A stretch of DNA of 64,000 nucleotides, taken from Candidatus Multivoradales bacterium (GTDB taxonomy: Bacteria > Acidobacteriota > Thermoanaerobaculia > Multivoradales > JAHEKO01). Shown here one piece after another: positions 12,325 through 44,928 of the stretch; position 1 is the stretch's first letter; the number at the start of each line of letters is the position of its first letter. The notes beneath the pieces were generated by a model, which did not search any database, was not told the DNA's origin, and saw only the letters and a list, made by a program, of their open reading frames with translations. The position numbers were made by a program, and so were the translations under genes. Location of the stretch: NCBI GenBank assembly GCA_965223155.1, contig CBDCVR010000015.1:192001-256000 (forward strand), written 5' to 3'.

Positions 12325-12780
12325 GTGAAGTGTCCCTATTGCGGCGATCTCAAAGACCGGGTCGTCGACTCGCGTGAGAGCAAGGACGGCTTGACGATCC
12401 GGAGGCGGCGCGAGTGCCTTGGCTGCAACCGCCGGTTCACCTCGTACGAGCAGATCGAGGACATCCCCTACATGGTGGTGAAGACCGACGGCTCGAGGCA
12501 GGACTTCGACCGCCAGAAGCTGGCGGCCGGGCTCCACAAGGCCTGCGAGAAGCGGCCGGTCTCGTCCACCGATCTCGAGGGCATCGTAGACGCGGTCGAG
12601 CGCCGGCTCCACCAGCAGGAAGACCGCGAGATCACCACCAAGGAAATCGGCACGATCATCATGCGACGGCTGAAGAAGCTCGACCAGGTGGCGTACGTTC
12701 GATTCGCTTCCGTCTACCGGAAGTTCGAAGACGTCGACGAGTTCATGGAAGAGCTCAAGAAGCTGGTCGGGCGCAGCTAG
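12325..12780 (+). CDS. nrdR: Transcriptional repressor NrdR
   Basis: MKCPYC..VVDSR..IRRRREC..C..RFTSYE, ATP-cone, LDQVAYVRFASVY. Confidence 0.97.
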   Translation: MKCPYCGDLKDRVVDSRESKDGLTIRRRRECLGCNRRFTSYEQIEDIPYMVVKTDGSRQDFDRQKLAAGLHKACEKRPVSSTDLEGIVDAVERRLHQQEDREITTKEIGTIIMRRLKKLDQVAYVRFASVYRKFEDVDEFMEELKKLVGRS

Positions 12781-40003: not shown

Positions 40004-41065
40004 CTAGATCTCCTGATAGAGCCACCTGCCCAGCGGCTCCAGTCGCTTCTTGACGCTCGCCGGGTCCGGATCGATCAGCCACAACGCGGCGGCCACCGAG
40101 GACAGAAGGGAGTTGCCGTCCTGAGGAGTAAAGCAGAATCCGTAGAGCTCCCGCCCGTGGCGGACGGTGAGGGTGGGCAATACCACGACGGTCTGGGAGA
40201 GGATCCGCCCGTAGTAGCCGTGGTCCCGGCCAAAGCTGAAGACGACGTTGGCCTGCTGCTTGTCGGTCACCGCGACGCGACGGTTGTCGTTCAGACGCTT
40301 GGTGATCTCTTCCAGGGTCACGTCCCGCGAGAACAGCATCCGGAACCAGATCGAGTGCATGTACTGCGTATTCAGCTTGGCAGCGCTCGAGAACAGGTTG
40401 AAGTCGAGGTTCAGCGTCTTGAACAGCGAATGGGCATCCCGAGCGTGGTGCGTGCCGAACTCGGAGTCCCCGTGGCTCCCCAAGAACGGGGCCGGGATGA
40501 ACTTGGACGCCTGGGTCACGTCATTGGCCCGGCGCATACAGACAAAGGTTCCCTGGTCCAGGCAGTAGCCCGACTCGTCCTCGCACAGGGTGCGGATCAG
40601 GGTTGTGATGTTGTGGGTGTTGCAGGACACGATCTGCAGAAAGCGGTCCTGTCCCGGTTCCAGCGCCTCGTCGTTCACGCCGCGAGCGTAGGGTTTGCCA
40701 AAGCCGAACTCGCTGCCTTGGGCAAGGTACCCTTTGGGACCTTGAATGTCCTGGTAGAAGGCCTCCTTGTTGGCGTTTCCCGCAGGGGTGCAATCGATGA
40801 CCACCGTCGCCCGCTCGATCGCGTCACGGGCCTCGAGCGAGACCTCGTGGCCCAACTCCTCGAAATCGGCCCGGCGATCGGCATCGACCGCGAGCCGCGC
40901 TCCCCGATCCATCAGGTGCTGGATCCGGGAGCGGTCCGACCGCAAGGGCGTCCGCTTGTGAAAGGTGACCTCGTCGATTCCCATCTTGTCTCCAAGGTCA
41001 GCGAACAACCCGATCAACGGCTCGCCGATCGTTCCGGTACCGACAATGTGCACAGTCGTCGTCAT
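40004..41065 (-). CDS. Archaeal-type (class II) glyceraldehyde-3-phosphate dehydrogenase homolog
   Basis: GTGTIG, VIDCTP.G..NK..Y, QGSE, IVSCNT (catalytic Cys), RRAND, THHARD, YMH. Confidence 0.75.
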   Translation of the reverse strand: MTTTVHIVGTGTIGEPLIGLFADLGDKMGIDEVTFHKRTPLRSDRSRIQHLMDRGARLAVDADRRADFEELGHEVSLEARDAIERATVVIDCTPAGNANKEAFYQDIQGPKGYLAQGSEFGFGKPYARGVNDEALEPGQDRFLQIVSCNTHNITTLIRTLCEDESGYCLDQGTFVCMRRANDVTQASKFIPAPFLGSHGDSEFGTHHARDAHSLFKTLNLDFNLFSSAAKLNTQYMHSIWFRMLFSRDVTLEEITKRLNDNRRVAVTDKQQANVVFSFGRDHGYYGRILSQTVVVLPTLTVRHGRELYGFCFTPQDGNSLLSSVAAALWLIDPDPASVKKRLEPLGRWLYQEI

Positions 41066-41885: not shown

Positions 41886-41971
41886 CTGGAGAGATTGACC
41901 TGGAGTCCTTGGAACGCCGATCCGGCTGCGACACCCGTCACCCGCGGACGCCAAGTGTAGACGATTCCGAG

Positions 41972-42020
41972 AAAAAAGACCGCAGGCCGCTCCCGAACTC
42001 GGACGGGGCGGCCTGCGGTC
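41972..42020 (-). terminator. Rho-independent terminator of the histone-like gene
   Basis: GACCGCAGGCCGC / GCGGCCTGCGGTC stem followed by T6 on the minus strand, about 25 nt after the stop. Confidence 0.88.
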
Positions 42021-42044
42021 GAAATCGAACCGTGCGGGCGGAGG

Positions 42045-42683
42045 CTACCGCCTCTTGGTCTTCCGCTTCGCGGCTTTCTTCTTGGTCTTGCGCTTCGGAG
42101 CGGCCTTCCGCTTAGTCTTCCGCTTCGCTGCCTTCTTTTTCGTCTTGCGCTTGGTGGCCTTCCTCTTGGCTGCCTTCTTCTTCGTCTTACGCTTCGGAGC
42201 GGCCTTCCGCTTGGTCTTCCGCTTCGCTGCCTTCTTTTTCGTCTTGCGCTTCGTGGCCTTTTTCTTGGCCGCCTTCTTCTTCGTCTTGCGCTTCGGAGCG
42301 GCCTTCCGCTTGGTCTTCCGCTTGGCTGCCTTCTTTTTCGTCTTGCGCTTGGTAGCCTTCTTCTTGGCTGCCTTCTTCTTCGTCTTACGCTTCGTGGCCT
42401 TCTTCTTGGCCGCCTTCTTCTTCGTCTTGCGCTTCGGAGCAGCCTTCCGCTTGGTCTTCCGCTTCGCTGCCTTCTTTTTCGTCTTGCGCTTGGTAGCCTT
42501 CTTCTTGGCTGCCTTCTTCTTCGTCTTGCGCTTGGTGGCCTTCTTCTTGGCCGCCTTCTTCTTCGTCTTGCGCTTGGTGGCCTTCTTCTTGACCGCCTTC
42601 TTTTTCGTCCTGCGTTTCGGAGCGGCCTTCTTTGCGACTTTGCGCTTAGTCTTGCGTTTTGTCGCCTTCTTCTTCCTCGCCAT
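42045..42683 (-). CDS. Histone-H1-like Lys/Arg/Ala-rich repeat protein, 212 aa
   Basis: GGGAGG RBS (42697-42692), own terminator, sequence limited to M/A/R/K/T/V/P, with differences between repeats mostly at third codon positions. Confidence 0.88.
   Translation of the reverse strand: MARKKKATKRKTKRKVAKKAAPKRRTKKKAVKKKATKRKTKKKAAKKKATKRKTKKKAAKKKATKRKTKKKAAKRKTKRKAAPKRKTKKKAAKKKATKRKTKKKAAKKKATKRKTKKKAAKRKTKRKAAPKRKTKKKAAKKKATKRKTKKKAAKRKTKRKAAPKRKTKKKAAKRKATKRKTKKKAAKRKTKRKAAPKRKTKKKAAKRKTKRR
42069..42590 (-). repeat. Coding tandem repeat made of 42-bp (A) and 57-bp (B) units, order AAAB-AAB-AB-AB
   Basis: A = KKKATKRKTKKKAA x7 (one K>R variant) and B = KRKTKRKAAPKRKTKKKAA x4; 31+98+76+7 = 212 aa. 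Confidence 0.9.
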
Positions 42684-43226
42684 CGGTACTGCCTCCCGCC
42701 CGGCTACGGGCTCAAGGACCTACCCGGTCCAAATCTACGCACGAGAGCGACATTGCTCTCAGCGCCTCCCCCCACATTGGCCAAATTCGCCAAACTCAAA
42801 GGGCCCGCGCTCCCACCGGAAGGCCTGCCCTATCCTCCAAGGAATCACTCGTTTCGCACTCCGACGGCCGGCGCAGAGCAAGAGCGTCTTGTGACTCCGG
42901 TCGACTCCAGCATCTCAGTGCCTAGAACCGATCTCGTTCGTCGGAGCCCACGCTACGCGCCGAGTCAACCGCGCCAGATGTCCTGGCCGCGGTGGCAAAG
43001 CGCGACGAGATGCGTTCGCGCTGCAACCGCGTTTCGACCGTGCGACGGCGTGCTCCACCATCGACCGCGAACAGCTCGAGCTTCGACGAAGCCGGCACCT
43101 CGAAAATCGGCGGCAGCAGCAATCCAGCCCGAACCTCGTAGACGCGGCGACGCACCACCCGGCCGGTCTGCTCGCAGCGTGCATCGAATTCCCAAGTCAT
43201 CGAACAAGGATCGCGGAACGAGTCGA

Positions 43227-43256
43227 AGAATGAACGATATATAGAGTCGTTGTCAA
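43227..43256 (-). promoter_or_regulatory. Putative sigma70 promoter pointing toward the histone-like gene
   Basis: Perfect TTGACA (43256-43251), 18-bp spacer, CATTCT (43232-43227). Confidence 0.6.
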
Positions 43257-43279
43257 GTAGAGACCACAACATATTGTGG
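43232..43279. promoter_or_regulatory. Tandem NrdR-box-like operators
   Basis: GAACGATATATAGAGT (43232-43247) and CCACAACATATTGTGG (43264-43279), centres 32 bp apart; both fit the acaCwAtATaTwGtg consensus, the second more closely. Confidence 0.8.
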
Positions 43280-43335
43280 TCCAAAGACAAATCGCAAGAA
43301 GCTCGCCGGCGGCGGCGCTTCTCCGTCTACGGCCC

Positions 43336-43341
43336 TATAAT
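43336..43341 (+). promoter_or_regulatory. -10 element of the mutase gene
   Basis: Perfect TATAAT 9 nt before ATG 43351, with no SD. Confidence 0.6.
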
Positions 43342-43350
43342 CACTGCGCC

Positions 43351-44928
43351 ATGGCCCAACGATTTCGAGACGATGCCGCTGCCGAGCGGCCGGCCTTTTA
43401 CGGCGCCGACGACCTGGCGGGAGAACCCACGCCCGCGGACCCGGGCAGCTTCCCGTTTACCCGGGGTTTGTACCCGGAGATGTACCGGCAGCGAGTCTGG
43501 ACGATGCGTCAGTACGCCGGCTTTTCCGATGCCGAGGAAACCAACCGGCGCTACAAGTTTCTACTCGAACAGGGAATCACCGGGCTCTCGGTCGCCTTCG
43601 ACCTGCCGACTCAGATCGGCTACGACTCCGACGGCCGCCTCGCCCGCGGCGAAGTCGGCCGCGTCGGAGTCGCCATCGACTCGATCGGCGACATGGAGCA
43701 GCTTTTCGATGGGATCCCGCTCGATCGCGTCACGACCTCGATGACCATCAACGCCACCGCGCCCATCTTGCTGGCCCTCTATCTCGCGGTGGCCGAGAAG
43801 CAAGGCGCCGACTGGGAACGGCTCGGCGGCACCGTGCAGAACGACATCCTCAAGGAATACGCCGCCCGGGGTACCTACATCTTCCCGCCCGAACCGTCGC
43901 TCAAGCTGGTTACCGACGTCATCGTGTTTTGCGCCGATCGGGTGCCGCGCTGGAACCCGATCTCGGTCTCCGGCTACCACATGCGGGAGGCCGGCAGCAC
44001 GGCCATCCAGGAGGTCGCCTTTACTCTGGCCAACGGACTGGCCTACGTCGAAGCCGCGGTAGCTCGCGGCCTCGACATTGACAGCTTCGCGCCGCGCGTC
44101 TCGTTCTTCTTCAACGCGCACAACAACTTCCTGGAAGAGGTCGCCAAGTTCCGCGCGGCCCGCCAGCTTTGGGCCGAGCTCGTCCGCGAGCGTTTCGCGC
44201 CCGCCAACGAACGGTCCTGCTGGCTGCGATTCCATACCCAGACCGCGGGCTCGACCCTCACCGCCCAGCAGCCGGACAACAACGTGGTCAGGGTCGCAGT
44301 CCAAGCGCTGGCGGCGATCTGCGGCGGAACCCAGTCACTTCATACCAACGCCCGCGACGAAGCCCTCGGACTGCCGACCCGGGAAGCAGCGCAGCTCGCG
44401 CTACGTACGCAGCAAGTCCTGGCTGAGGAGAGCGGCATCGTCGAGGTCGCCGATCCTCTCGGCGGTTCCTGGGCGGTGGAACGCCTGACGGGCGACATCG
44501 TCGCCGGCGCTCGCGAGTACCTGACCCGCCTGGAAGAGCTGGGCGGCCCGCTCAAGGCCTTGGACCAGGGGTTTCAGCAACGCGAGATTGCCGACGCCGC
44601 CTACGCGACTCAGCTTGCCATTGAGGCGGGCTCCGAGCGAGTGGTCGGAGTCAACGTCCACCGCACCGAAGATTCCGCCTCGCCCGAGGTGCTCCGTGTC
44701 GATCCGGCCAGTGAAGCCCGGCAGGTCGCCCGGCTACACGCCTTTCGCGAGCAACGCGACGCCGGTGCCGTCCAACGGGCACTCGCGGAGCTTGGCACGG
44801 CGGCCGGCGAGAACCGCAACCTCATGCCAGCGATCCTGGAAGCGGTACGAGCCGGTTGCACGGTCGGCGAAATCTCCGACGCGCTGCGCGCGGTCTTCGG
44901 CGAGCACCGCGAAACGTCGTTCGGCTAG
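43351..44928 (+). CDS. Methylmalonyl-CoA mutase, substrate-binding (large) subunit without a B12 domain
   Basis: FPFTRGLY, WTMRQYAGF, GLSVAFDLPTQ.GYDSD, QNDILKEY.ARG, SGYHMREAG, TQSLHTN; no DxHxxG. Confidence 0.93.
   Translation: MAQRFRDDAAAERPAFYGADDLAGEPTPADPGSFPFTRGLYPEMYRQRVWTMRQYAGFSDAEETNRRYKFLLEQGITGLSVAFDLPTQIGYDSDGRLARGEVGRVGVAIDSIGDMEQLFDGIPLDRVTTSMTINATAPILLALYLAVAEKQGADWERLGGTVQNDILKEYAARGTYIFPPEPSLKLVTDVIVFCADRVPRWNPISVSGYHMREAGSTAIQEVAFTLANGLAYVEAAVARGLDIDSFAPRVSFFFNAHNNFLEEVAKFRAARQLWAELVRERFAPANERSCWLRFHTQTAGSTLTAQQPDNNVVRVAVQALAAICGGTQSLHTNARDEALGLPTREAAQLALRTQQVLAEESGIVEVADPLGGSWAVERLTGDIVAGAREYLTRLEELGGPLKALDQGFQQREIADAAYATQLAIEAGSERVVGVNVHRTEDSASPEVLRVDPASEARQVARLHAFREQRDAGAVQRALAELGTAAGENRNLMPAILEAVRAGCTVGEISDALRAVFGEHRETSFG

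Follow-up and report, generated by a model that had tools for sequence, protein, structure and literature searches.

The bacterial repressor NrdR senses the building blocks of DNA and acts through short palindromic sites, the NrdR boxes, for which the consensus acaCwAtATaTwGtg has been given (PMC4009431). Two boxes are needed for binding, which is best when the spacer between them is 15–17 bp (PMC12051234), and paired operators of this kind are known at nrdAB, nrdHIEF and nrdDG of E. coli and at nrdRJ of S. coelicolor (PMC12051234, PMC12176259, PMC4009431). Outside the ribonucleotide reductase (RNR) operons, boxes have been described for topA in Pseudomonas and dnaA in Shewanella; these are single boxes, a single box is considered insufficient, and topA is unresponsive to loss of nrdR (bioRxiv 10.1101/2025.03.28.645925; PMC12051234). 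Recent work restricts functional pairs to reductase operons and regards the single boxes of other genes as doubtful (bioRxiv 10.1101/2025.03.28.645925; PMC12051234). In E. coli and P. aeruginosa, boxes and clear regulation coincide only at RNR operons (bioRxiv 10.1101/2025.03.28.645925), and a regulon spanning the Proteobacteria comprises nrd genes, trxA, yfaE, topA and a few locus tags (PMC5343134). These statements, and the comparisons made below, draw on the accessible portions of the papers cited. The literature searched showed no NrdR control of bacterial histone-H1-like genes and, with the accessible portion of PMC4989314 included, no paired NrdR boxes at smc or at a histone-like gene; an earlier mention is possible, subscription papers lying mostly outside the scope of the search.

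Here we describe a bacterial locus at which a pair of NrdR-type boxes precedes a gene for a histone-H1-like protein. Its features are collected in Table 1, with positions counted in the window, that is, the whole stretch of 64,000 nucleotides that was analysed. The locus has in common with the known paired RNR operators two 16-bp palindromic boxes, three helical turns apart over a predicted promoter, and an nrdR gene in the genome. It differs from them in that no reductase gene follows, the unit apparently ending after the histone-H1-like gene, and in that the original reductase now stands elsewhere without boxes or has been lost. As with the topA and dnaA boxes, a DNA-transaction gene outside the reductase operons is concerned; unlike those single boxes, however, the ones found here at the H1-like gene, at smc and at a gene for a small membrane protein are in each case a conserved pair at 31–32 bp. 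Our preferred reading, to which we assign a probability of about 0.65, is that NrdR represses the histone-like gene and smc along with the reductase, and that the operator of the histone-like gene was inherited from nrdJ.

Table 1. Positions of the features discussed, in window coordinates
Feature	Position	Strand	Remarks
Terminator-like hairpin with U6	41972..42020	-	Resembles an intrinsic terminator; -39.5 kcal/mol, then TTTTTT; after the H1-like gene
Histone-H1-like gene	42045..42683	-	212 aa of Lys/Ala/Arg/Thr repeats
Candidate structured leader RNA	42681..42768	-	Three hairpins, two of them well supported and the third less variable, followed by GGGAGG; immediately ahead of the H1-like start
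Small leader ORF	42922..43200	-	Open over 92 aa here; its unnamed family has a length of about 75 aa; likely in decay in this genome
Predicted -10, CATTCT	43227..43232	-	CAnnCT in relatives; predicted start near 43220
NrdR box 2	43232..43247		GAACGATATATAGAGT; occupies the -35/-10 spacer
Predicted -35, TTGACA	43251..43256	-	Inherited from the nrdJ promoter
NrdR box 1, promoter-distal	43264..43279		CCACAACATATTGTGG; near-perfect palindrome immediately 5' of the -35
Methylmalonyl-CoA mutase-family gene, divergent	43336..44928	+	ATG 43351; TATAAT 43336-43341; PF01642, 718.5 bits
nrdR, cognate repressor gene	12325..12780	+	TIGR00244, 201.8 bits against a cut-off of 124.65

RESULTS

Boxes and promoter

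The two boxes start 32 bp apart and leave a spacer of 16 bp, which falls within the 15–17 bp optimum given in the accessible portion of PMC12051234. Box 1 departs from the generic 16-mer consensus at three positions and box 2 at four, with the core intact in both, and by their sequence the paired sites are an NrdR-type operator. A predicted minus-strand promoter, TTGACA-N18-CATTCT, lies between the boxes and overlaps them; this arrangement, with the boxes 32 bp apart, is the one reported in a first-pass annotation of the window, and it was recovered in full, position by position. A generic promoter scan did not list the minus-strand promoter and gave instead a single plus-strand match at 43250–43277, so that the promoter call rests on conservation. 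In the eight genomes compared that lack nrdJ at this place, TTGACA is invariant (8/8), 6–8 bp past box 1 and 2–3 bp ahead of box 2, and CAnnCT is found at the end of box 2, 17–18 bp past TTGACA (8/8).

The same annotation had placed nrdR within the window, which is borne out by a TIGR00244 match over the cut-off; among the 45 genomes of the family, nrdR is matched in 43, in 40 of them above the cut-off. Elsewhere in the genome, G000:C14:135199–136551 (plus strand) encodes a protein of ~450 aa whose N-terminal part is an ATP-cone and which is distinct both from NrdR and from reductase large subunits.

The mutase gene on the other side of the boxes begins with an ATG only ~10 nt past a perfect TATAAT. 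The layout is similar in relatives, and the mRNA is likely leaderless or nearly so.

The histone-H1-like protein

The H1-like protein is made of K, A, R, T, P, V and M only (107 K, 43 A, 28 R and 26 T), with no D or E and a net charge of +135. No Pfam or NCBIfam family matched it at E<=0.1, a test weakened by the low complexity of the sequence; for the proteins of two relatives, NCBIfam gave no match and Pfam gave only coiled-coil-like matches below the cut-off. Judging by the composition and the lack of a Pfam match, the winged-helix globular domain of eukaryotic linker histone H1 is absent. Among relatives the length of the protein ranges from 21 to 245 aa. From composition alone, we infer that the protein compacts DNA. 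Other bacterial histone-H1-like proteins are Hc1, BpH1 of Bordetella and AlgP of Pseudomonas. Very basic, short Lys/Ala-rich repeats whose number varies between relatives are shared with Chlamydia Hc2/HctB, as described in the accessible portion of PMC2848022; the present protein differs in having no profile match, and homology is undemonstrable for sequence of such low complexity.

An open reading frame on the plus strand (42055–42894) was set aside as an antisense shadow cast by the H1-like gene. A second Lys-rich ORF, of 102 aa and with an H1-like tail, lies at G000:C14:1131403–1131711 (plus strand), and no NrdR pair was found on that contig.

Genome-wide occurrence of paired boxes

The genome is 4.0 Mb in size and 98.66% complete. 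A consensus scan of these 4.0 Mb returned 18 matches. The boxes described here formed the only pair among them, and no other site combined an intact core with four or fewer mismatches. Because this generic scan missed the pair at nrdA, a lineage matrix was built. The matrix is palindromic, and its 97 training sites came from relatives, out of 54 nrdJ promoter regions, with no locus included that holds the H1-like gene only; spacings of 18–55 bp were scanned, and a pair was called strong when its scores summed to at least 25, with at least 5 for each box.

Five pairs scored above 17 bits. The fifth (17.7) lies inside a gene, and the four strong ones (29.9–37.9) belong to nrdAB, the H1-like gene, smc and a 68-aa hydrophobic ORF. 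Strong pairs occurred only at spacings of 31 (one pair) and 32 bp (three pairs), and 30 column-permuted matrices yielded one strong pair in total. Scoring of both sites across the genome, a check named in the first-pass annotation, thus ranked box 1 first and put the pair among the strong four: box 1 is the best single site of the genome, at 24.1 of 25.3 bits, and outscores the nrdA boxes, and box 2 is the weaker box, at 6.9 bits.

The sole RNR of the genome is the class Ia enzyme encoded by nrdAB (C15:643439–647235), ~410 kb from the boxes; neither nrdD nor a second PF02867 match was found in the genome at its 98.66% completeness. The box–TTGACA–box layout is repeated at the nrdA promoter of the same genome, at 31 bp, and nrdA carries a pair in 10 of 10 relatives.

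Origin of the promoter

Orthologs of the mutase gene were located in 21 relatives. In 12 of them the class II reductase gene nrdJ stands head-to-head with the mutase at this place (in one case with an intervening gene); the remaining nine loci have the H1-like gene without nrdJ (seven), neither gene (one) or another context (one). The nrdJ of the relatives stands behind the same boxes and promoter, so that relatives keeping nrdJ have an RNR gene downstream of the promoter, whereas there is none at this position in the present genome. In a wider set the usual order is nrdJ followed by tlpA, and the H1-like gene lies between them in 19 loci, mostly of this family, after 13 duplicate loci had been dropped and one doubtful 38-aa call omitted. 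Because nrdJ sits at this place in relatives, with the H1-like gene between it and tlpA, the promoter is that of nrdJ and the H1-like gene its former downstream neighbour; the promoter was inherited, and was not built for the histone-like gene. The mutase and nrdJ products, ancestrally encoded head-to-head, are both B12 enzymes.

Displaced copies of nrdJ in G001–G004, G007 and G013 (L056, L057, L058, L059, L061 and L062) have no pair (<=3.9 bits), and those of G001–G004 and G007 form one clade (0.956) in an nrdJ tree made with FastTree. These displaced genes look intact; they have lost their boxes, while nrdAB is boxed in the same genomes. For five other displaced nrdJ genes the result is mixed: the distant copy in G005 has a pair (30.4), that of G017 has one good box (19.1), that of G016 scores 14.1, and two have none.

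Retention of the boxes after the departure of nrdJ

The first-pass annotation had proposed looking for the paired boxes upstream of orthologous H1-like genes, and they are indeed kept in nine of the ten readable genomes that have the H1-like gene without nrdJ at this place (the eight first found, plus G053). Pair scores in the nine are 27.8–40.8 bits, compared with at most 16.2 for 2000 random 750-bp windows, the box spacer is 15–16 bp throughout, and the genomes represent four genera and span 0.39–0.66 amino-acid substitutions per site. Mean identity across eight genomes without nrdJ here is 0.84 for box 1 and 0.77 for box 2, and 0.28–0.30 for the flanks. Box 2, a weak site in this genome, overlaps the promoter spacer, so that its conservation may in part be on behalf of RNA polymerase. 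The nine retaining genomes are not independent. In a two-gene tree of 32 genomes, eight of them (genera g1, g19 and g4) form one clade with support of 99, and G005 is unplaced (support 25); the pattern therefore rests on one or two events.

Some genomes depart from this pattern. G016 has a 21-aa H1-like ORF with its ribosome site kept (L162:5570–5640), and upstream of it there is no nrdJ, no mutase and no boxes (best pair -0.8 over 3 kb), so the H1-like gene can exist without the operator. In G013, nrdJ, the H1-like gene and the boxes were lost together. At 14 loci with neither nrdJ nor a detected H1-like gene, no pair was found before tlpA (maximum 7.7); three of these loci did hold H1-like sequence, two of them cut by the contig end.

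To the reading of the boxes as a dead relic, left over from the nrdJ promoter, we give very little credence. The annotation, which had the promoter pointing at the H1-like gene, would have taken it for a relic if relatives carried an RNR gene here, and nrdJ was in fact ancestrally at this place, as the 12 of 21 loci attest. The origin from nrdJ is thus upheld, but the boxes have been preserved far above their flanks since nrdJ left, over at least 0.4 amino-acid substitutions per site, and this conservation contradicts a dead relic. It is also hard to reconcile with that reading that box 1 outscores the boxes of nrdA, and that its palindrome is G+C-ended, unlike an A/T-tract promoter element.

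The boxes might instead have been kept for the divergent B12-dependent mutase gene, which the annotation offered as an alternative target, putting its -10 about 57 bp from the nearer box (56 bp as measured from box 1). We regard this as distinctly improbable. All nine retaining genomes do keep the mutase there, its product shares the use of B12 with nrdJ, and box 1 stands 56–57 bp from the mutase -10 throughout the five genomes of the genus and as close as 14 bp in G022. However, the mutase genes that have parted from the nrdJ/H1 side lack a pair in three cases out of three (G013, G034 and G040), and where nrdJ has no adjacent mutase the boxes stay with nrdJ (e.g., G008, G014, G018, G019, G023 and G024). 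Over the set, anything from 14 to 67 bp separates box 1 from the mutase -10, whereas the box-to-TTGACA distance is constant to within 2 bp. We judge the H1-like gene, the target named in the annotation, to be the likeliest one.

smc and further members of the putative regulon

The smc pair of this genome lies at G000:C13:611625–611672 (L196/L198), ahead of a gene that starts at 611728 and matches TIGR02168 with 935 bits; no RNR gene was seen adjoining it. In the family, smc was matched in 38 of 45 genomes, and all of the best 30 loci, which were scored, have a pair. These pairs are spaced 31–32 bp, start 60–160 bp ahead of the start codon and score 20.9–40.6 bits, the second box being weak in G014, G045 and G013. 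In a class-wide sample, the smc pair was present in 11 of 11 genomes drawn from the order's other families, as well as in G017, where the second box is weak. Outside the order it was present in 1 of 15, and there on the strength of a single box; the matrix does find pairs at four of the five outside-order nrdJ promoters tested. A -10-like hexamer follows the end of the second smc box (TTGTGG) at a distance of ~18 nt, and that end may also act as a -35.

An explanation that also has NrdR binding at the H1-like promoter is that the operator acts as an inherited brake: the dose of the H1-like protein would have been tuned under repression, loss of the operator would mean overproduction of a very basic protein, and coupling to dNTPs would be a by-product. 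The operator did come from nrdJ and was not newly gained, the -35 is a perfect TTGACA, the mini-ORF of G016 has no operator, and one or two events underlie the retention pattern, all of which such a brake would accommodate. Yet a separate pair stands at smc in all of the 41 genomes that were counted within the order, and in G017 with its weak second box, and no RNR gene was seen beside smc in this genome; moreover, a weaker promoter would presumably have been an easier route to a lower dose. We consider the brake unlikely, although less so than any other alternative treated here.

The top NrdR pair of the genome (37.9 bits) precedes the gene for the 68-aa protein (G000:C13:416095–416363; L228:1697–1965), a small membrane protein that has a hydrophobic stretch at its N-terminus and matches no family. 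Homologs gave seven matches, and a pair was present in each of the five loci scored. On sequence grounds, this gene is a possible further member of the NrdR regulon.

The leader of the histone-like gene

The annotation had also suggested that a small ORF or an RNA might lie in the long leader. Both exist, but the ORF looks decayed here and is confined to one genus, being found in 5 of the 45 family genomes. By codon position, identity in its core is 0.77/0.89/0.37, a pattern by which the ORF is coding-constrained in the genus. The family has nine further clusters at E<1e-10; a tenth match, to a RING-finger protein with repeats (P0010), was dropped as chance. In the present genome AGG-TTC (at 43136) stands where the family has its Met-Phe start, and is not in frame with the conserved core; the conserved middle residues, too, are gone. 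Because of these two losses the ORF is likely decaying here, while box 1 is near-perfect. Atlas look-ups of the small ORF and of the small membrane protein above returned only 'hypothetical protein' clusters, at 0.86–0.90 and with low recognition.

Derivation of the small ORF from the 5' end of nrdJ, suggested by an RFxRR/GxDP likeness, was not supported: one of five sequences beat its shuffles (1 of 300 as high), and for the others 19–221 of 300 shuffles scored as high. Comparison of the genus ORF with small ORFs of G022, G053 and G007 detected no homology (33–164 of 300 shuffles as high). G022 (L047) and G053 (L284) have a small ORF in common, apparently unrelated to that of the genus, at the same leader position between the boxes and the H1-like gene.

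The 88 nt ahead of the H1-like ATG are conserved and form hairpins with two-sided changes. In a two-helix model 92% of cells are paired, and 8 of 10 pairs show two-sided changes; 0–3 of 500 shuffles were as high, and slid controls reached at most 46%, figures to be read with the alignment having been fitted to the model and the sequences being related. The model occurs in one copy per genome, with 23 strong matches in 45 genomes, the training set included. The leader may act in stability, processing or autoregulation. As to the four weak matches, those in G006 and G016 (C44) are false, that in G041 lies before an H1-like gene, and that in G018 is the H1-like locus. An Rfam search over 41900–43500 gave nothing at gathering level, only four chance-level matches (best 18.4 bits against a cut-off of 50). 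A three-helix extension fitted less well (79% paired, outer helix 1 pairing out of register) and was not adopted, and some genera have a fourth hairpin upstream of the structured leader. A sigma-54 reading of the element GGCAAT...TTGC was likewise discarded; GG and GC are 15 apart, where 10 would be expected, and the element itself folds into a hairpin.

The hairpin at 41972–42020 likely ends the transcript ahead of the TlpA-like gene, and a strong terminator 3' of the H1-like gene is present here and in four of seven such genomes scanned. Within the leader, three of eight loci without nrdJ, this genome included, have a loose terminator-like stretch, and 4 of 13 nrdJ–H1 spacers scanned have a hairpin with T4–5 ahead of the leader; read-through to the H1-like gene is for this reason not certain. 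It is conceivable that transcription from the NrdR promoter yields no more than the small leader ORF or a short RNA, and that the H1-like gene uses a promoter of its own near the structured leader. The terminator-like stretches would fit such an arrangement, as would the coding constraint on the small ORF, which is the first reading frame past the promoter, and the different small ORF that G022 and G053 have in its place. Against this, the ORF family is found in few family genomes whereas the boxes are kept in four genera, and the ORF looks decayed here although box 1 is the best of the genome. In addition, a search of the 210 nt before the leader in 25 loci, which covered sigma-70 patterns only, found no conserved separate promoter. 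In G005 the small ORF is absent, the H1-like ATG is 198 bp from box 1, the promoter stands ~50 nt from the leader, and the next gene is on the other strand. We think this arrangement improbable, a shade more so than the brake considered above.

DISCUSSION

Under our preferred reading, gene order and trees together suggest the following history of the locus. The H1-like gene would first have settled behind nrdJ, probably as a second cistron. Subsequently nrdJ would have moved off, leaving its operator behind, and the present genome would have lost it afterwards, the promoter and both boxes staying under selection.

The regulation can be envisaged from the known biochemistry of NrdR. Loaded with dATP and ATP, the repressor would bind both boxes and cover the -35 and the spacer. 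As replication drains dATP, NrdR would release the H1-like gene, smc and nrdAB. At the H1-like locus, transcription would then start near 43220, pass the decayed small ORF and the structured leader and end at the 41972–42020 terminator, giving an RNA of ~1.2 kb, and the supply of DNA-packing protein might in this way be matched to the DNA made.

It is likely, as far as sequence comparison can tell, that NrdR ties chromosome packing to DNA synthesis in this lineage. A broader proposal, which we put forward tentatively and at somewhat less than even odds, is that across this acidobacterial order NrdR serves as a sensor of replication load for chromosome architecture besides the reductases, the histone-like gene having captured the nrdJ operator firmly enough for it to stay when the reductase departed, so that the supply of condensin and the histone-like protein would keep pace with the use of dNTPs. 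With conserved pairs at smc and the histone-like gene, the NrdR regulon would widen from DNA precursors to DNA packing, and would directly connect nucleotide pools with the structure of the nucleoid. The locus also preserves a clean record of how a regulon is rewired in nature, in which the regulated gene left and lost its control while a neighbour kept it, and the structured leader is a candidate for a new RNA motif.

Finally, we note a conserved gene of 353 aa in the window (40004–41065, minus strand), distantly like archaeal type II glyceraldehyde-3-phosphate dehydrogenase. It scores 80.5 bits, under the cut-off of 185, has no Pfam match, and adjoins a gene for a conserved 80-aa protein with two Cys pairs.
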